In this document: in pieces, positions 2 through 16,706 of the stretch
Position numbering within the stretch: the stretch's first letter is position 1
Layout: every line of letters begins with the position of its first letter
Assembly: GCA_015487095.1 (NCBI GenBank)
Contig: WFQM01000320.1
Span: 1 to 44,721, forward strand
From: Gammaproteobacteria bacterium
GTDB lineage: Bacteria; Pseudomonadota; Gammaproteobacteria; SZUA-152
DNA: 44,721 bases
Reading direction: 5' to 3'
Notes under the pieces: model-generated
What the model was told of the DNA's origin: nothing
What the model saw: only the letters and a program-made list of their open reading frames with translations
Databases searched by the model: none
Position numbers and translations under genes: made by a program

Positions 2-844
2 ATGTTGGCCGAGTTGGAAACCCTCGGTGCATTGCCTGCGCAATATCTTATTTTGGAGTTGAGCGCAGACTTGCAGGAACGTCAACGTGAAACCCTTGCT
101 GCACGGGTGCCGCATTTGCTGGAAAGAGTGTACTGGTTGCACGAATTACCTGCACCCGGTTTTCGCGGGGCAGTGGTGGCCAATGAATTGTTGGATGCAT
201 TGCCTGTTCACTGCTTTGTCACCCACAAAAACGGCTTGCAGGAACGTTGTGTGAGTTTTGCCGAGGGTCGTTTTCAATGGGTAAACAACGAGACGGATGA
301 GTTGTTATTGCCAGAGCACCTAACAGAAATCATTGCAAAACTGCCTCCGGGTTACACATCAGAAATCAATTTTGCAGCCACCGGCTGGATTCAATCCATT
401 GCTAATTTGCTGGATGCCGGGGTGGTGTTGCTGATTGATTATGGCTATGCCACTGCCGAGTATTATCATCCCCAGCGTGATGGCGGTACGTTGATGTGCC
501 ATTATCGGCATCGTGCCCATGATGATCCGTTTGTTTATCCCGGGTTACAGGATATTACCGCCCATGTGGACTTTACTGCCATTGCCGAAGCGGCGGTATC
601 TGCGGGGTTAGATGTGCGTGGTTACAATACTCAGGGAATTTTTCTGTTGGGCTGTGGCATCAGTGAACTGGCGCAACCCTTTGACGAGCTGGATGAGCGG
701 CAGCAGATATTACAAGCACAACAATTGCGTACCCTTACCTTGCCTACTGAAATGGGGGAGCGTTTTAAAGTAATTGCCCTGGCACGAGACTATCATCAGC
801 CCTTGTGTGGTTTTGTCATGCAAGATTTACGTCATCAGCTTTAA
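2..844 (+). CDS. SAM-dependent methyltransferase, MidA/NDUFAF7 family (5' truncated by window edge)
   Basis: Family motifs ANELLDALP, LLIDYG, GTLMCHYRH, PGLQDITAHVDF, EMGERFKV. Confidence 0.9.
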   Translation: MLAELETLGALPAQYLILELSADLQERQRETLAARVPHLLERVYWLHELPAPGFRGAVVANELLDALPVHCFVTHKNGLQERCVSFAEGRFQWVNNETDELLLPEHLTEIIAKLPPGYTSEINFAATGWIQSIANLLDAGVVLLIDYGYATAEYYHPQRDGGTLMCHYRHRAHDDPFVYPGLQDITAHVDFTAIAEAAVSAGLDVRGYNTQGIFLLGCGISELAQPFDELDERQQILQAQQLRTLTLPTEMGERFKVIALARDYHQPLCGFVMQDLRHQL

Positions 845-921
845 ACCTGGGTTAAATGTGAATTAAGGGCTAAATTGCCCTGTTTTCAGCGTTGCAGCAG
901 AGCCTGGGCAATGAAAACCCA

Positions 922-1015
922 ACGCAAAGGCGCGGAGACGCAGAGCGCGCAAAGAATGAAGGGATAACGGGCAAAGGTATCGCTTTGCGTTCTCTGCATC
1001 TCCGCGCCTTTGCGT
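922..1015. repeat. Intergenic 33-bp inverted repeat (REP-like hairpin)
   Basis: acgcaaaggcgcggagacgcagagcgcgcaaag (922-954) matches the reverse complement of 983-1015 with 3 mismatches; built from cgcaaag/cgcagag units. Confidence 0.85.
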
Positions 1016-1145
1016 CAGATTTTATGATGCGGTGATTCGTAGCCGGGGGATGGCCTGCTCTGCTGAATGTAAACCAATGGCTTTATTCGCCTGGATATTT
1101 TTAACACTTAATTCACATTTAAATGGAAAAACATTGGAACTGTTA

Positions 1146-1835
1146 ATGGGTAATAAATTACAACAAACTCAGGATATGCTCGCCAAACATCATCGGGATG
1201 GCGACGTTTTTGTACAATTGATGAAGGACACTTATGCCGGGCGTTTTAACGAGGATTTCTGGGCATTGTGGAATACGCGCATAGCGCCAATGTTGAGCGA
1301 ATTACCAGTGATTCTGGATTTGGGCACCGGCCCAGGCACCTTCTTGCGTGACATACATGAACGGTATCCGAAGGCCCGTGCCATTGGCGTGGAGTGTGCA
1401 GAATACATGCTGGAGGCTGCCAGCGATTTGCCGGAGGGTTGTGAAATTATCACAGCCGATTTACACGACCCTCATTTGCCGTTGGCTGATAACAGTGTCG
1501 ATGCAGTCGTTGCCTCTGTCGTGCTGCATGAAATGCACCAGCCTGTGCGCACTTTGCAAGAGATGCAGCGCTGTCTGAAACCCGGCGGTATTTTTTATGT
1601 GATGGACTGGGTGCGCGCACCGTTGGCGCAATATCTGGCAGACAGTGAGTTGGCCGTATTTGACCGGCAGACACCTGAAGAGGAATTGGAAGACCTGTTT
1701 ATTCATTTTATTGAACACAATCGGTTCAGTGTTGATGACCTGGCCTTCATGCTGGAAAACACTGGCTTCCGCGTACTGGAAAAAACACTGCTGAAGGAAG
1801 GGCGCATGGCGCGCCTTGTCGCGGAGAAAAAATAA
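1146..1835 (+). CDS. Class I SAM-dependent methyltransferase (UbiE/Methyltransf_11-like)
   Basis: ILDLGTGPG motif I, LPLADNSVDAVV, LKPGG; ATG at 1146 preferred over the track start at 1032. Confidence 0.85.
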   Translation: MGNKLQQTQDMLAKHHRDGDVFVQLMKDTYAGRFNEDFWALWNTRIAPMLSELPVILDLGTGPGTFLRDIHERYPKARAIGVECAEYMLEAASDLPEGCEIITADLHDPHLPLADNSVDAVVASVVLHEMHQPVRTLQEMQRCLKPGGIFYVMDWVRAPLAQYLADSELAVFDRQTPEEELEDLFIHFIEHNRFSVDDLAFMLENTGFRVLEKTLLKEGRMARLVAEKK

Positions 1836-1841
1836 ACCGCT

Positions 1842-2639
1842 ATGGATGCATTACACGCTGTTTTTCTTGCTCTGGTACAGGGTTTTTCTGAATTCCTTCC
1901 CGTTTCCAGTTCCGCACATCTTATTTTATTGCCGCGTTTGCTGGGCTGGCCGGATCAGGGGCTGGCCTTTGATGTCGCTGTACACGTTGGCACGCTGAGC
2001 GCGGTGGTATTGTATTTTCGTCGCGAGCTGGTGCCCATGACGCAGGACTGGGTGCAGTCAGTGCTTACTCGTAAGCAAACTGCAAATAGTCGGCTGGCCT
2101 GGGCGGTATTATGGGGTACTGTTCCCGTAGGGCTGGCAGGCCTGCTGTTAAAAGGTTTTATTGAAAATAACTTGCGTTCGGAGTTGGTCATTGCTGCGGC
2201 AACCATAGGCTTTGCTCTAGTGCTGTGGTGGGCGGATAGCAAAGGCCGGGGTCAGCGTGATGAATACAGCCTGCGTATCAGTGATATTGCTATTATTGGT
2301 GTTGCTCAGGCATTGGCGTTGATTCCGGGTACTTCACGTTCCGGTGCGACAATGACGGCGGGATTGATGCTGGGGTTGTCGCGTGAGGCGGCGGCACGCT
2401 TTTCATTTCTGCTGTCGATTCCGGTGATTACCCTGGCCGGGGGATTGCTGACACTGGATTTGATCCAGGATCCCGGTCAGGTGGATTGGCGGGCTATGGT
2501 TATCGGAGTGATGACTTCGGCGATTACCGCCTATTTGTGTATACACTTTTTTCTGAAGCTGCTGGAACGCATCGGCATGTTACCTTTTGTGATTTATCGT
2601 TTATTGCTGGGGGGGCTGCTGATTTATCTGTTTGCCTGA
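1842..2639 (+). CDS. uppP: Undecaprenyl-diphosphate phosphatase (BacA)
   Basis: VQGFSEFLPVSSSAH and ALIPGTSRSGATM signatures; multiple TM segments. Confidence 0.96.
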   Translation: MDALHAVFLALVQGFSEFLPVSSSAHLILLPRLLGWPDQGLAFDVAVHVGTLSAVVLYFRRELVPMTQDWVQSVLTRKQTANSRLAWAVLWGTVPVGLAGLLLKGFIENNLRSELVIAAATIGFALVLWWADSKGRGQRDEYSLRISDIAIIGVAQALALIPGTSRSGATMTAGLMLGLSREAAARFSFLLSIPVITLAGGLLTLDLIQDPGQVDWRAMVIGVMTSAITAYLCIHFFLKLLERIGMLPFVIYRLLLGGLLIYLFA

Positions 2640-3226
2640 GCCTGTTTAACCAGTCCCCATGTCAGCAAACCCAAGCCCAGCAAAGACAATGTGCCCTGGT
2701 AGTAAGGGTAGAATTCAAAGTCACTAAAGCCCAGTCCATAAAAGGCCACAAAACCTACCCAGGTAGCACCGGAGCAGTGTTCGATGGCCGTCATGTAGGT
2801 GAAAGCGGTTACCAGCAGCACAACCCCCAACAGTCCGCGCAACAGGCCGGTATTGTGTTGCGCAGTTTGTCGGGCACGATTGATCAGTTGCCCACCGAGC
2901 AGGGCAGCAAACAGGTAAACCAGGAGAGTAATGCTGTCGTATTGCAGTGTCCATAAATTCAACCCGCTACGTGGATCCTGATGGATAAACACAAACAGCG
3001 ATTTGGTAACAATAAATTTCAGTGCGCTGAGTGGTTGCTCCTGCCAGATGAGTTGGAACATGGCGATGTCGGCCCCGATGGGGAACAGCATGTGATTGAC
3101 CATGCCTCCATTAAGCAGGACCATGGCAGCCAGACCGATAACAAAAAAGCTGACAAACAACAATGCGCTCATTGATAGCCAGTGATTTGGTTTTTTGGGC
3201 GGGTGAACAATCAGGGTTTTATCCAT
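2624..3226 (-). CDS. Hypothetical integral membrane protein
   Basis: 200-aa ORF with about 4-5 hydrophobic segments filling the uppP-apaH gap; overlaps the uppP 3' end by 16 bp. Confidence 0.7.
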   Translation of the reverse strand: MDKTLIVHPPKKPNHWLSMSALLFVSFFVIGLAAMVLLNGGMVNHMLFPIGADIAMFQLIWQEQPLSALKFIVTKSLFVFIHQDPRSGLNLWTLQYDSITLLVYLFAALLGGQLINRARQTAQHNTGLLRGLLGVVLLVTAFTYMTAIEHCSGATWVGFVAFYGLGFSDFEFYPYYQGTLSLLGLGLLTWGLVKQAQANR

Positions 3227-7507: not shown

Positions 7508-9100
7508 TCAGCCAGTAGAGTCCTGCCGACATTCCTTGCAATAAACCTTACCCAGTCGAACATGATATTGCACACGTTCGCCCACCAATATTTCCTGCTG
7601 GCAGCTATCACAAAGTGTTGCATCATCCATAGTCATTTCATCAAAACCTTCAACCGGCAGCTCTTTGCCAAACACTATTTTTTTCCAGGGTTTATCTTTG
7701 ACGATATCTTTTCGGTATATTTCTTCTATCGCACGGAAGCGTCTTACTAAATATTCCGGTACGCCAAAGCGTCTCAGGCTTGATTCCATTAATGCTTCAC
7801 GATGGTCAAGCAGCTCATCAGAAATTACCATCCAATGATGGGCGCTGCGTGGGCGTTCACCAAAATAAACATCTTCACCTGTTAGCACCTGACACATAAA
7901 ATTATATTGTTTCTCAATCAGGCGTTGTTTAGTAGCGCCTTCAAAAAAAGGAGACAGCAATGGATCATCGTAGACATGGTCATAAAAATCGATCAATACT
8001 TTTGACAAAAGACGACCTTCATCGAGTCCTTTCCAAAGCTCAAGGTCTGGATCAGGATAGTTGCGGAGTTCTGCACAGCGAATGCGTTCTGCTGTGTCGG
8101 CATCTGTATCATTTAGATTGGCGTCATTAACGCTAGCCCAGTCCCAGAATGGGTCGGCGTGAATTTCCTGCGGGTTAGCGCCTGCCGTCTGAGTGGCTTG
8201 TTGCATGTCTTCCACCATCTTTGGGTGGCCGCATAAATAAACCCGCCATCCTTTCAGGTCTGTATGGTCTGCCAAGGCAATATCATTAGCGCGTCCGGCC
8301 CGATGATTTCTCGGGGTTGCATGCCCTGAAACACACGAAACAGGATGAAAATTATCATGCTGTTCAGACAGTTGCTTCAAAATGGGTTGTAAATATAAAC
8401 CGTGTGGATATCGGCTACCATGATACAAATGAATGGGGCCGGTATGTCCGCTGGAAAGCGCATCACGTACAATTCCCAGCAATGGAGATAAACCTGTTCC
8501 GGTACCGATTAATAGTAATGGCTGGTGTTGCTCACCGGGTACATAATAATTGCTGCCTACGGCTCCCTGAAAATCAAGTTCATCATTTTCTGACAGTTCA
8601 TCAAATATCCAGTTACTCATTACACCATTGGATACACGCTTGACATGAATCTCCAGAAAATAATCTTCCTGTGGCACACTGGATAATGAGTAGCTTCGCA
8701 TCTCACCTTGTTGGTTGCGGATATTAATAAACTGTCCGGGGTGATAATAAAGTTGTGTAGCGGGCTCCAGTAATAAGCGACATACATCAGGTGCCAGTAA
8801 TTCTTTTTTGTAAACAACTGCCCGGTTAAATAAATCAGTATCTCGTGGCAGGGAGATTTCCATGTCGTTTTCGGGCATACATTTGCAGATTAGAAAATAA
8901 TCTTTTTCTTTTAGTGTTTCCCGTAATCCTTTTTGGGCTTTTGGCGGTATAAGTCCATTTTCACAGCGCTGTAAACAAACATGACAGATGCCATTCCCGC
9001 ACGAAAAAGGAACGGTTATCCCGTGGCGCATAAAAACCTGTAAAATGGTTTCGTTTTCACGGCACTGGTAACTTTTTCCTTGGAAGTAAATTTTATTCAT
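7508..9100 (-). CDS. Fusion: 2Fe-2S ferredoxin + FAD/NAD(P)H ferredoxin reductase + group I truncated globin + C-terminal Cys4 finger
   Basis: CGNGICHVC...C; RSYSLSS, GTGTGLSP, YLCGHPKM; DFYDHV..DPLLSPFF..Q..F..LTG..Y.G....AH globin pattern; CDSC...CKEC tail. Confidence 0.85.
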   Translation of the reverse strand: MNKIYFQGKSYQCRENETILQVFMRHGITVPFSCGNGICHVCLQRCENGLIPPKAQKGLRETLKEKDYFLICKCMPENDMEISLPRDTDLFNRAVVYKKELLAPDVCRLLLEPATQLYYHPGQFINIRNQQGEMRSYSLSSVPQEDYFLEIHVKRVSNGVMSNWIFDELSENDELDFQGAVGSNYYVPGEQHQPLLLIGTGTGLSPLLGIVRDALSSGHTGPIHLYHGSRYPHGLYLQPILKQLSEQHDNFHPVSCVSGHATPRNHRAGRANDIALADHTDLKGWRVYLCGHPKMVEDMQQATQTAGANPQEIHADPFWDWASVNDANLNDTDADTAERIRCAELRNYPDPDLELWKGLDEGRLLSKVLIDFYDHVYDDPLLSPFFEGATKQRLIEKQYNFMCQVLTGEDVYFGERPRSAHHWMVISDELLDHREALMESSLRRFGVPEYLVRRFRAIEEIYRKDIVKDKPWKKIVFGKELPVEGFDEMTMDDATLCDSCQQEILVGERVQYHVRLGKVYCKECRQDSTG

Positions 9101-9506
9101 GTTTTTTTTGATTGGCATCATATTTTTCAGAGTGGCTGTGTATAACAGGGATTTTTATATAATTTTCTTTTAGGATATGGATATTAACGGCCGTTTTGGC
9201 AAGGTCGGCAATATTTTTAAAGCCTTTGCGCAGCACGATTTGTAGTAGAAAATCAGAGTTGCAATCATACTCACGACATACTTTTGGCCGCTTTTTCCAG
9301 TTGGTGCAGCGGCTATTGTTACGATCAAAGTGGATGCAGTAACCTTCCGAATCTTTATCGACGAAACCTTTGGGTGGAGTGTTGCCATTCGCGGGCTCCA
9401 TTTCATCAGGCTGTAAACGTACCAGTTTTCGACAACAAAAAGTTGCACAGCCCATACGCTGCCCTTCATCACAATTTACAAGGTATGTTTTTTTGCAGTT
9501 ATCCAT
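9093..9506 (-). CDS. YkgJ-family cysteine-cluster protein
   Basis: C..GCATFCC, CIHFD, RCTNWKKRPKVCREYDC; stop overlaps the start of the globin fusion. Confidence 0.8.
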   Translation of the reverse strand: MDNCKKTYLVNCDEGQRMGCATFCCRKLVRLQPDEMEPANGNTPPKGFVDKDSEGYCIHFDRNNSRCTNWKKRPKVCREYDCNSDFLLQIVLRKGFKNIADLAKTAVNIHILKENYIKIPVIHSHSEKYDANQKKHE

Positions 9507-9709: not shown

Positions 9710-10114
9710 CTAAATAGCCGCTTCAATAGACGGCATAGACGAACGCGATTTCGTCAGAACCATACCGAGGTTGGCTGATTTTCGACAAACAAAAGTCGCT
9801 ACATGTTCTTCATTGCTTTTGGAACGTAAAAATACGTGTAACAAATTATCACTGTTAATAATGATTTCCTGAAAATAATGGTGGTTATCATTTTCCACTC
9901 CGCGGGCCTTTTTGAACATACTTTCAATCAGGGACACATTGGTTCCCTGAAAAAGGTCTGCGGTTGCAGCAGCAACAACCTCCAGCACTTCAGCCGGGTG
10001 TGAGTCCACAGTCTTGGCGCTTAGTAGCATACCGGTGCTGAGGTCCACGAAACCTGCGGCGACACATTCCGGAATGGATGCGATGGCTGTTTGTAGGGCT
10101 TTATCTAATGACAT
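9710..10114 (-). CDS. Roadblock/LC7 (MglB-like) fold protein
   Basis: 134 aa; IPECVAAGFVDLSTGMLL...VAAATADLF...EIIINSDNLLHVF...ANLGMV roadblock/profilin-like pattern; AAGGAG RBS before ATG 10114. Confidence 0.7.
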   Translation of the reverse strand: MSLDKALQTAIASIPECVAAGFVDLSTGMLLSAKTVDSHPAEVLEVVAAATADLFQGTNVSLIESMFKKARGVENDNHHYFQEIIINSDNLLHVFLRSKSNEEHVATFVCRKSANLGMVLTKSRSSMPSIEAAI

Positions 10115-10146: not shown

Positions 10147-11508
10147 TTATGACGACGCAATATGTCGTCCGTTGCTTATGCCGGAATTTGCTACCGCCAA
10201 CGCAAATTCCTCCAAAAATTCTACTTGAACATCTGATTGCACCCAACGAGGCTCAATGCTACGTGCGGCCTCCAGAGCATCCAGAGCAGTTTCACCTTCC
10301 CAGATCAACTGCGCAACGAGCATAGTGCCGGTACGACCCATGCCGGCTTTGCAATGCATGGCAATAGCTTCGCCCTGTTCGGTCAATTCACCCACCTGTT
10401 CGCAAAGTTTGAGAGCGGCTTCAATGGTAGGTACTCCCATATCCTTAATTGGAAATGCAATTCCCTTGATGTCGTATTCGGCAAGTATAACCGGATCAAT
10501 GGGTTGAGTTGTCAGGGAAACCAGCACGCTGATTCCCACTCGCTGTAGCGCAGCGAGATCATAATCCAGTTCGATTAATAATCCGGGACGTGGCGTGCCG
10601 GCCAGGTCACCTTTTCTAAGCCAAAGAAAATTACGAGGCCCAAATGCATCACTTTTGTATTTCCGAGCCTCCTCGGGTATTTTGGGGCGAACCGTTTTAA
10701 GCGGTGCAGCTGGCGTATCTATGGCTTCTGTTACGGGGTCATTCAGATGTTCGTCGGGTGTGTCTGGGGCAGAAACACAACAGGAGCCACTGCGCACAAA
10801 ATCTCTGGCCGCTTGTGATTGAGGTGCTGCAAAAAAATCGGCGGTGGGTTGTGTTTCATGAACCCAGCCACCGGCCAATAATGCGGTTTGTCCACCCAGT
10901 TTGATAGCTTGTTTCTGGTTATGTACAACGACCACCACAGCGCGGCGTTCGGCTTCCATGAGCAGATAATCCAACAGGCGATGGGTTTCTGCTTCATCCA
11001 GCCCGGCAGTGGGTTCGTCTACAAAAATTAATTTGGGGTTAGCTGCTACAGTACGGGCAATTGCCAGGTGGCGTTGCACCGCCAGTGGAAAATCTGAGGC
11101 ATTGTCATTCAGCCGGTCAACTAATTCAGTCAGGCCTGCCTTGCTCAACAGGCGTTGTGCCACATCCCGTTGCTGGGAGATATCCAGTGTATGGCGTTCG
11201 GGCATATCATTAACAATATTCTCACGAATGCTGGCCATGATGAGCTTGGTTTTCTGTGCCACCAGTGCAGGTGACTCAGACTTTCCCAAAGGCATGCCGA
11301 CATATTCGGCCTTGCCCCAAGTGCGTAGAGAAGGATTGGCATTGTTAAGGCCGGAAAGTGTTCGTAGCAGGGTGGATTTTCCAGTACCGGCTGGGCCCAA
11401 CAACACGGTCATTCCCTGCTCGGGAATATCCAGGTCGATACCGTTAAGAATAATTTTATCACCAAAAGCGACACCATACTCTCGCAAAGATAGAATTGAT
11501 TCGCTCAC
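10147..11508 (-). CDS. PstB-like ABC ATPase domain fused to a Cys-dependent (dual-specificity/Tyr) protein phosphatase
   Basis: Walker A GPAGTGKST, Walker B IFVDEPT, H-loop VVHN; general-acid loop FPIKDMGVP and P-loop HCKAGMGRTG (10333-10356); GTG start overlaps the GTPase TGA. Confidence 0.88.
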   Translation of the reverse strand: MSESILSLREYGVAFGDKIILNGIDLDIPEQGMTVLLGPAGTGKSTLLRTLSGLNNANPSLRTWGKAEYVGMPLGKSESPALVAQKTKLIMASIRENIVNDMPERHTLDISQQRDVAQRLLSKAGLTELVDRLNDNASDFPLAVQRHLAIARTVAANPKLIFVDEPTAGLDEAETHRLLDYLLMEAERRAVVVVVHNQKQAIKLGGQTALLAGGWVHETQPTADFFAAPQSQAARDFVRSGSCCVSAPDTPDEHLNDPVTEAIDTPAAPLKTVRPKIPEEARKYKSDAFGPRNFLWLRKGDLAGTPRPGLLIELDYDLAALQRVGISVLVSLTTQPIDPVILAEYDIKGIAFPIKDMGVPTIEAALKLCEQVGELTEQGEAIAMHCKAGMGRTGTMLVAQLIWEGETALDALEAARSIEPRWVQSDVQVEFLEEFALAVANSGISNGRHIASS

Positions 11509-12053
11509 GCGGCTTCTCCATTCAGACCAGGGTCCAGAGAATAAAGCAGAGCCTGAACCAGCATCATGACATCATCATGTTGACGGGCATCCACCTCGAA
11601 CACAGGCACATTCAGATCCAGTTTTGTCAGAGTTGCCTGGTAGTCCTCAAGCTTTAATCCTTTGCGCAATTCCATTCTTGTAATGCCAATGGCCACAGCA
11701 TTATTTTGAATAAACTCTTTAAAGGCGCTGATAAAGGCCTTTAAGTCATCCAGTGGAGCGGGATTGGCATCGTCCAGCATAATAATTACACCAAGGCTGC
11801 CATCGGTGAGCAAGTCCCACATAAAATTGAAACGCTCTTGTCCGGGTGTACCATAAAGATGCAGTGTCTCTCCATTATCCAGACGCATACTACCGTAATC
11901 CATTGCCACTGTGGTCAATTCTTTTTTGTCTTTTGTTTCATCTGTTGCAGTCTGTTCTGTGGAAAATGGTGCAATATCACTAATTGCGGTAATTGCGGTT
12001 GTTTTGCCTGCACCTACGGGGCCGGTAAAAATAATTTTGTACTGACCAATCAT
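11505..12053 (-). CDS. Small GTPase, MglA/conservon CvnD type
   Basis: G1 GPVGAGKTT, G2 TTVAMDYG, G3 LYGTPGQERF, G4-like TRME, G5 DAR. Confidence 0.9.
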   Translation of the reverse strand: MIGQYKIIFTGPVGAGKTTAITAISDIAPFSTEQTATDETKDKKELTTVAMDYGSMRLDNGETLHLYGTPGQERFNFMWDLLTDGSLGVIIMLDDANPAPLDDLKAFISAFKEFIQNNAVAIGITRMELRKGLKLEDYQATLTKLDLNVPVFEVDARQHDDVMMLVQALLYSLDPGLNGEAA

Positions 12054-16288: not shown

Positions 16289-16654
16289 TCAAATTTCCAA
16301 TTCGTTACTGATTTCAGACAATATGTAGCGGGCCATTGCTAAATTGCCACTAGTCTTGTCGAGTATAAGGTAGACGAAGAGTCCATCCTTTTGGGGTAAA
16401 AGCCGAATCAGGTGGTATTGTGTACCGAGGGTAATCAAAATATCTTCAAGGCTATCCTTCAACCCCAGGTTTCGCATCGTCGTACGTTTTGCACGTACTA
16501 TTTCAGTGTTGCCAACGGCAGCTAAACTGAGATTGAGTTTTGTGTCACCTTTTTCAGAGTCGAGCATCAGGCCACTGTTACTATCAACGATACAAGCACC
16601 GATGAACCCGTCGAGTTTACGGGTTTTTTTAAGACTCTCTTTCAAACTTGCCAT
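16289..16654 (-). CDS. Roadblock/LC7-like protein (second copy type)
   Basis: LDGFIGACIVDSNSGLML...AAVGNTEIVRAK...LEDILITLGTQYHLIR...GNLAMAR; GGAGA RBS. Confidence 0.78.
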   Translation of the reverse strand: MASLKESLKKTRKLDGFIGACIVDSNSGLMLDSEKGDTKLNLSLAAVGNTEIVRAKRTTMRNLGLKDSLEDILITLGTQYHLIRLLPQKDGLFVYLILDKTSGNLAMARYILSEISNELEI

Positions 16655-16706
16655 CACTGTTCTCCATTCCTAAATCATAGTTTTTAACGTGGTGAGCATA
16701 CATTTT

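Follow-up and report, generated by a model that had tools for sequence, protein, structure and literature searches.

The locus described here raises a simple question: what does an ATP-binding cassette (ABC) ATPase do when it is fused to a phosphatase and no transporter partner stands near it? The gene lies on the minus strand of contig WFQM01000320.1 of a gammaproteobacterial genome (assembly GCA_015487095.1, SZUA-152); positions 1 to 44,721 of the contig were analysed and are called the window below. Its product of 453 residues, the fusion, joins an ABC nucleotide-binding domain (NBD) to a phosphatase of the CX5R type. We suggest, with a probability of about 0.6, that the fusion is a soluble NBD-phosphatase signalling enzyme, which works with a small Roadblock-type protein (Roadblock-A) and in beta- and gammaproteobacteria does so within an operon of the Group 3 MglA type. 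An earlier note, made from the letters of the window alone, had proposed that a transporter NBD was repurposed as a nucleotide-binding, possibly non-hydrolysing, regulator of the phosphatase. The PstB origin, the lack of a transporter partner at the locus and the family-wide character of both the fusion and the loss of the ABC signature stand; the 'possibly non-hydrolysing' part is not what the motif pattern points to.

The two halves of the fusion and the constant partner

The NBD resembles PstB most closely. The ABC_tran domain of Pfam covers residues 21-168 of the fusion with 61.7 bits (cut-off 25), and PstB (TIGR00972) is the top NCBIfam match at 139.6 bits, against 80.6 bits for the next non-phosphate family. 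Residues 6-239 align to E. coli PstB (PDB 9k3x), and the aligned part includes the PstB-like C-terminal end, which had been recognised already from the letters. The domain is derived from a transporter type, yet it is not the PstB of its genome: its match to TIGR00972 stays at 139.6-141.3 bits, below the cut-off of 343.2, and a true PstB with 422.2 bits is encoded on another contig (C35) of the same genome, which has 3.6 Mb and is 96.8% complete. The window has neither an ABC permease nor a binding protein within about 10 kb of the fusion, as the earlier note had also seen, and the inspected related loci show no transporter partner, with GTPase, Roadblock and globin genes there instead.

The motifs of the NBD fall into two groups, which were counted in 49 homologues of the fusion at 37-89% identity. 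The first group is complete. Walker A (GPAGTGKST, residues 38-46), the Q-loop (Q85), Walker B (LIFVDEPT, 160-167) and the H-loop (H196) are all present, and all 49 homologues share K44, S45, Q85, D164, E165 and H196; the sequence and the alignment to 9k3x thus confirm the intact Walker A, Walker B and H-loop of the earlier reading. The second group is degenerate. In canonical ABC proteins the signature motif of one subunit is needed to make the other subunit's ATP site complete. Here LSGGQ of PstB aligns onto F140-P141-L142-A143-V144, followed by QRH, so DFPLAVQRH had been placed correctly at the signature position. The signature serine is kept in 15 of 49 homologues, the first glycine in none, the second in 14 and the glutamine in 7; SGG occurs in none of the 49, and the suspected loss is therefore a conserved trait. 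The aspartate of the D-loop (SALD) is present in 14/49 and is replaced elsewhere by S, E, N, P, G, A or R, although the fusion of the window itself has it (Asp171). In addition, Cys243 at the end of the NBD, within GSCC (241-244), is kept in 47/49.

Since the residues acting in cis are invariant and both motifs acting in trans are relaxed, the pattern suggests that the classical head-to-tail ATP sandwich has been abandoned while nucleotide binding is retained. It points to loss of the canonical dimer and not to plain loss of hydrolysis. Given the selection on Glu165 and His196, ATP hydrolysis is probably retained as well.

The phosphatase half is recognised by several Pfam families at residues 291-433, namely Tc-R-P, PTP-SAK, DSPc and Y_phosphatase. 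Tc-R-P (PF22785) matches residues 307-406 with 63.4 bits and PTP-SAK (PF22784) gives 44.7 bits, the cut-off being 27 in both cases. Residues 293-437 align to 25xa, a solved stand-alone dual-specificity phosphatase and the nearest solved relative of this half (E 1.2e-19). The P-loop HCKAGMGRTGT occupies residues 385-395, the general acid is D356 in PIKDMGVP, and D356, C386, R392, Q424 and Q428 are kept in 49/49 homologues; we take the two invariant glutamines to resemble the Q-loop of tyrosine phosphatases. Judged by its motifs, the domain is catalytically complete. The order of SCC, a Pro/Thr-rich linker and a complete HCxxGxxR phosphatase with its acid Asp is as it had been described.

The fusion is no assembly artefact of two separate genes, a case for which the earlier note had allowed. 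A search of a large protein collection gives 1587 matches, and the best 120 all have 434-469 residues, carry both domains and are 54-100% identical. Among 600 candidate stretches from contigs of one genome per species, at least 466 are confirmed as the fusion. In a profile search of 1.84 billion cluster representatives (50% identity clusters) the cluster at rank 150 still scores 428 bits, so the family holds more than 150 such clusters at full length. Gamma- and Betaproteobacteria, Myxococcota and one planctomycete carry it among the matches listed. Short proteins with the phosphatase half only gave 21 matches, mostly on contigs of 1-4 kb, for which reason we read them as probably cut genes and not split forms. 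No publication on an ABC-phosphatase fusion was found in the open-access literature, and the family appears to be unstudied in print. Its culturable carriers include Exilibacterium tricleocarpae, Microbulbifer rhizosphaerae, Thiohalophilus thiocyanatoxydans and Sulfurifustis variabilis.

The gene following the fusion encodes Roadblock-A. Its identity came from the fold search only: the AlphaFold2 (AF2) model (predicted local distance difference test, pLDDT, 87.8) matches in Foldseek 3kye, the MglB structures 3t12, 3t1r, 1j3w and 6hjm, and LAMTOR, with E of 1e-7 to 1e-5 and probability 1.0. Searches for its sequence family in Pfam (17 members), NCBIfam and PDB profiles found none, the best PDB profile match being ribosomal S5 at E 0.052, and a protein atlas gave a weak Roadblock lead (0.89).

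The neighbourhood was counted in 80 fusion-bearing loci. In 78 of them the Roadblock-A gene shares the strand of the fusion and lies no more than 800 nt downstream of it. Of the two exceptions, one locus is cut by a contig end and the other (L077) differs; the sole Roadblock-like match in L077 lies upstream of the fusion and is just 34% identical. The association is also seen from the other side. When 301 genomes were sampled from the class, a strong Roadblock-A match (>230 bits) appeared in 5 and a weak one (43-71 bits) in 10. The fusion stands directly upstream of the strong match in 4 of 4 genomes besides the window's own, and it is found in none of five genomes checked that have a weak paralogous match. 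The invariant unit is the fusion with Roadblock-A. Across loci the median identity of Roadblock-A is 66%, against 48% for the fusion. In 17 members Cys17, His39 (SHP), His79 (HYF) and His93 are invariant and Cys110 nearly so, a set that could be a metal, heme or redox site. A complex prediction for the fusion with two copies of Roadblock-A scored 0.17 against a mark of 0.32, which has no bearing either way on binding.

The operon and its Group 3 MglA-type setting

The genes upstream of the pair in the window encode a small GTPase and a protein of 387 residues (Table 1). The GTG start of the fusion and the TGA stop of the GTPase gene share letters in a GTGA, and the 387-residue protein gene ends 38 nt upstream of the GTPase ATG. 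The TAA stop of the fusion lies at 10147-10149, and the Roadblock-A ATG (10114) follows 32 nt past it, 7 nt after AAGGAG. The Shine-Dalgarno sites and the GTGA overlap support coupling of the minus-strand genes; together with the short gaps they make the four genes from 13255 to 9710 look like one operon. A promoter and terminator scan stayed at chance level.

Table 1. Positions of the fusion, its operon partners and two genes downstream in the window
Feature	Position	Strand	Basis
PstB-derived ABC NBD (aa 1-240), linker (aa 244-285), CX5R phosphatase (aa 286-440)	10147..11508	-	Pfam, NCBIfam, PDB alignment, motif counts
Roadblock-A, 134 aa, Roadblock/LC7 (MglB-like) fold	9710..10114	-	AF2 model and Foldseek
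Small Ras-superfamily GTPase, MglA/CvnD kind, Group 3-like	11505..12053	-	Pfam, motifs
387-aa protein: receiver-like fold (aa 7-107), disordered linker (106-169), C-terminal alpha/beta region ending in three helices	12092..13255	-	AF2 model, fold search
Fer2 - FAD/NAD reductase - truncated-globin protein with Cys-rich tail	7508..9121	-	Pfam
CxxCxxCC (putative Zn/Fe-chelating) protein, overlaps the globin gene start	9093..9506	-	Pfam PF03692, 30.9 bits

The GTPase has the motifs GPVGAGKTT, GTPGQ, GITR in place of NKxD, and VDAR. Its gene is present in 57 of the 80 loci, and PGQ and the D.R of DAR are kept in at least 95% of these 57 homologues. The 387-residue protein has no Pfam match even at E 10, and its receiver-like nature is evidenced from the AF2 model (pLDDT 71.9), which superimposes on response regulators with Z of 10-11 and root-mean-square deviation of 2.1-2.8; Foldseek agrees on the receiver fold. 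For the C-terminus three helices and a strand are predicted, and its match lists are filled by receiver domains. A likeness of this C-terminus to CvnC/DUF742 was considered and dropped, as no hidden Markov model matched. Relatives of the protein are found by tblastn in 40/80 loci. In two loci (L003 and L011) the GTPase and receiver-like genes stand downstream of the fusion/Roadblock pair.

A gene set of this kind has been described by Wuichet and Sogaard-Andersen (2014). In the part of that paper available to us, Group 3 MglA operons of beta- and gammaproteobacteria hold an unknown protein, an MglA homologue and one or two MglB homologues; in the unknown protein a variable linker joins a receiver-like N-terminus to a winged-helix C-terminus, and the MglA homologue has a deviant G4 and a DAR G5 motif (PMC4316618). 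The window agrees with this description in the deviant G4 and DAR G5 of its GTPase, a fit that rests on motifs and not on a tree, in the Roadblock protein of the operon, and in the receiver-like N-terminus of the 387-residue protein, which a disordered linker follows. In the fusion-bearing subtype, unlike in the arrangement described there, the gene of the fusion is placed after that of the GTPase and before that of the Roadblock protein. The same part of the paper mentions neither a phosphatase nor an ABC-phosphatase component (PMC4316618).

Loci without the fusion help to place it. Nine of the loci with a weak Roadblock match were examined; six of them have a GTPase, a Roadblock recognisable by Pfam ('MglB-1') and a second Roadblock ('MglB-2'), and four of the six also have a relative of the 387-residue protein. 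The Pfam identification was made in one of the fusion-less loci, and MglB-1-type genes were identified in this way in two fusion loci. MglB-2 is homologous to Roadblock-A (hhalign probability 98.3%, 26% identity), and one aligned MglB-2 paralogue from a fusion-less locus has none of Cys17, His39 and His79. From this homology and from the fusion-less loci we read the fusion as an addition to the Group 3 core. It would have been inserted before the MglB-2-type Roadblock, which would then have gained its own Cys/His set. An MglB-1-type gene follows Roadblock-A in 47/80 fusion loci, the window not being one of them. Its orthologue in the window's genome lies on contig C301 and is 90% identical to that of locus L002 (Roadblock-B), which stands inside the L002 fusion operon.

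Several further observations concern relatives of these proteins in the same genome. The module on C301 (locus L095, about 839-3196, minus strand) has no GTPase and consists of a 49%-identical paralogue of the 387-residue protein, followed by two Pfam Roadblock genes. On contig C254 (locus L094, 3-1806) a further small GTPase gene is represented by its end (55% identity over 40 aa). Two unknown open reading frames (ORFs) of 215 and 199 aa come next, then a Pfam Roadblock gene, and a response-regulator-like gene lies on the opposite strand; this may be a third G-protein module of the genome. Within the window, a 122-aa ORF at 16289-16657 (minus strand), which adjoins an AcrB-type pump gene, has a GACIVDSNSGLML segment recalling Roadblock proteins. 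It matches a Group 3 MglB-2 weakly by tblastn (E 0.002) and has no Pfam match and no hhalign support against the Roadblock-A profile. The earlier note was silent on the Roadblock neighbour being obligatory, and on the GTPase and REC-like genes being of the Group 3 MglA kind.

On the downstream side, the globin part of the Fer2-reductase-globin protein matches group I truncated hemoglobins. Such a globin is found near the cluster in 41/80 loci (39 of 68 loci with at least 2.5 kb of downstream sequence), in some related loci as a Fer2-globin without the reductase, and the CxxCxxCC protein gene is found in 12/80. The globin protein is possibly part of the fusion system. A redox or O2/NO (gas) input to the system is plausible because of this globin-ferredoxin neighbour, the Cys/His set of Roadblock-A and the near-invariant Cys243. 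Also within about 10 kb, the window encodes an SMR pump, an AFG1 ATPase, a radical SAM protein and an AcrB pump. PADLOC does not point to a known defence system: it gives only generic ATPase matches for the fusion and none for its three partners.

Proposed working and alternatives

We suggest the following sequence of events for the signalling enzyme. The ATP state of the NBD would govern its association with the Roadblock/GTPase platform. This would place or release the tethered phosphatase, which would then remove a phosphate from a component of the switch or from a target. On this view the fusion would act next to the GTPase as an enzymatic arm that uses ATP, about where the conservons of actinobacteria have the kinase-like CvnA. 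The globin-ferredoxin neighbour and the clade-specific Cys and His of Roadblock-A may hint at redox or O2/NO as the input. Bacterial small-GTPase switches beyond Myxococcus and the actinobacterial conservons are poorly understood, and Group 3 systems are without a known input or enzymatic partner; the fusion and Roadblock-A would give them a defined and conserved enzyme pair.

Several observations weigh against this proposal. The operon has no kinase gene, and the Pfam families to which the phosphatase is closest are described from settings other than signalling (toxin systems, fusions with NAD kinase). The C-terminal region of the 387-residue protein is a possible winged helix only, and the globin neighbour is limited to about half of the loci. 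The link to the GTPase is not universal, as it is evidenced from 19 loci which have upstream sequence and no GTPase within about 5 kb. These belong to Myxococcota, the planctomycete, Rhodanobacteraceae and others; in the Myxococcota the genes upstream of the fusion encode tetratricopeptide repeat proteins or unknowns, and the protein encoded upstream in the planctomycete locus is not similar to the 387-residue protein. The core of the fusion and Roadblock-A may therefore have a function independent of the GTPase.

The alternative that survives best, though we consider it rather unlikely, concerns the substrate. The phosphatase-fold domain would act, instead of on a protein, on a small molecule or a nucleic-acid end; nucleotides, phosphates of inositol or lipids, polyphosphate and RNA 5' ends come into question. 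Binding or delivering this ligand would fall to the NBD, and responding to the product would fall to the Roadblock and GTPase. The best Pfam matches, Tc-R-P, PTP-SAK and PTP-NADK, are named for non-classical settings and there is a weak match to PTP-like phytase (E 0.0095), which together with the missing kinase gene fits such a role. So does the P-loop, HCKAG(M/L)GRTGT, with a lysine beside the cysteine, presumably as in phosphatases of acidic substrates. However, the classical Y_phosphatase family (PF00102) also matches, from the acid loop to the VQSxxQVxF segment, with 27.7 bits (cut-off 20.9). Q424 and Q428 are invariant, and 25xa is deposited only as a 'dual specificity protein phosphatase family protein'.

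Next comes the possibility, less probable still, that the NBD only binds nucleotide, without hydrolysis, and switches the phosphatase allosterically within one polypeptide, independent of other proteins. The family-wide loss of the signature, which in canonical ABC proteins would complete the partner's ATP site, is in line with it. The invariance of the Walker B glutamate and the H-loop histidine is unexpected if hydrolysis is dispensable. The linker speaks against it too. Rich in Pro, Thr and Asp after GSCC in the window's fusion, it varies between Cys243 and Ser286 from 23 to 75 aa (median 32) in the 49 homologues, and in column conservation it reaches 0.32, where the NBD has 0.57 and the phosphatase 0.62. 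In long forms (650-1900 aa) the N-terminus is extended and about 350-450 residues separate NBD and phosphatase; a 'Rosetta stone' search found no added Pfam domain in them, and for high-GC genomes some of them may reflect gene calls that were extended too far. This variation in length and the wide spacing of the domains fit a tether better than rigid allostery. Finally, the near-obligatory Roadblock neighbour argues for a device of several proteins.

It is similarly improbable, in our view, that the fusion and Roadblock-A form a self-contained device, older and wider than the GTPase operon. There Roadblock-A would regulate an ABC-type ATPase by supplying in trans what the lost signature and D-loop gave, and the clade-specific Cys and His would tie the release of the tethered phosphatase to a redox, metal or heme signal that is connected with the globin-ferredoxin neighbour. 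If it is true, an ABC-type ATPase would come under the control of a Roadblock protein, a kind hitherto known to regulate GTPases alone.

That the fusion energises a permease encoded elsewhere, with the phosphatase as an accessory, is very improbable: ABC_tran is complete in its cis motifs and PstB is the nearest family, but signature and D-loop are degenerate family-wide, the adjacent genes in the window include no permease or binding protein, the inspected related loci show GTPase, Roadblock and globin genes in its place, a separate PstB that passes the cut-off is encoded in the genome, and the conserved partner is a soluble Roadblock protein. Probably, then, the fusion is a cytosolic signalling enzyme and not a transporter subunit. 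We note that it is also a natural experiment on the ABC mechanism, with the cis catalytic residues kept and both trans dimer motifs lost, and its biochemistry could show what an ABC domain is capable of without the ATP sandwich.

Comparison with known systems

The closest parallel in organisation outside Group 3 is the actinobacterial conservon, in which, according to the part of the source available to us, an ATP-using enzyme of phosphoryl chemistry, CvnA, is encoded beside a Roadblock protein and an MglA-type GTPase (PMC13343842). Like the conservons (AGPS; CvnA-D, Mfp), the fusion operon joins a small MglA-type GTPase, a Roadblock protein and an ATP-using phosphoryl enzyme. Unlike in the conservon, where CvnA is membrane-bound and histidine-kinase-like, the enzyme here is soluble and consists of an ABC NBD with a phosphatase attached, and the phyla differ. 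DUF742 has no match in the 387-residue protein (E 10) or anywhere in the window's genome and the operon has no kinase gene; thus the fusion operon is not a member of the conservons.

The phosphatase half is similar to atypical dual-specificity and Cdc14-like phosphatases (25xa; PF22785, PF22784, PF00782) in the HCX5R(T) P-loop, the upstream general-acid Asp and a fold of about 150 aa. Unlike those enzymes, it is always preceded by the NBD and a conserved SDAFGPRxFLW lead-in, and it carries an invariant EPRWVQSxxQ.

With PstB (TIGR00972; 9k3x, 9k3s) the ABC half shares Walker A, the Q-loop, Walker B, the H-loop and the C-terminal end. It differs in having FPLAV for LSGGQ, a D-loop Asp that is not conserved, the attached phosphatase and no adjacent pstSCA genes. 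Non-consensus signatures are known from the heterodimeric ABC exporters CFTR and TAP, where they accompany altered ATP handling. In these exporters the degenerate signature faces a Walker B or H-loop of the partner that is degenerate as well, and one site keeps the consensus. The fusion, in contrast, has a single type of NBD, which keeps all its catalytic residues and loses only the motifs acting in trans.

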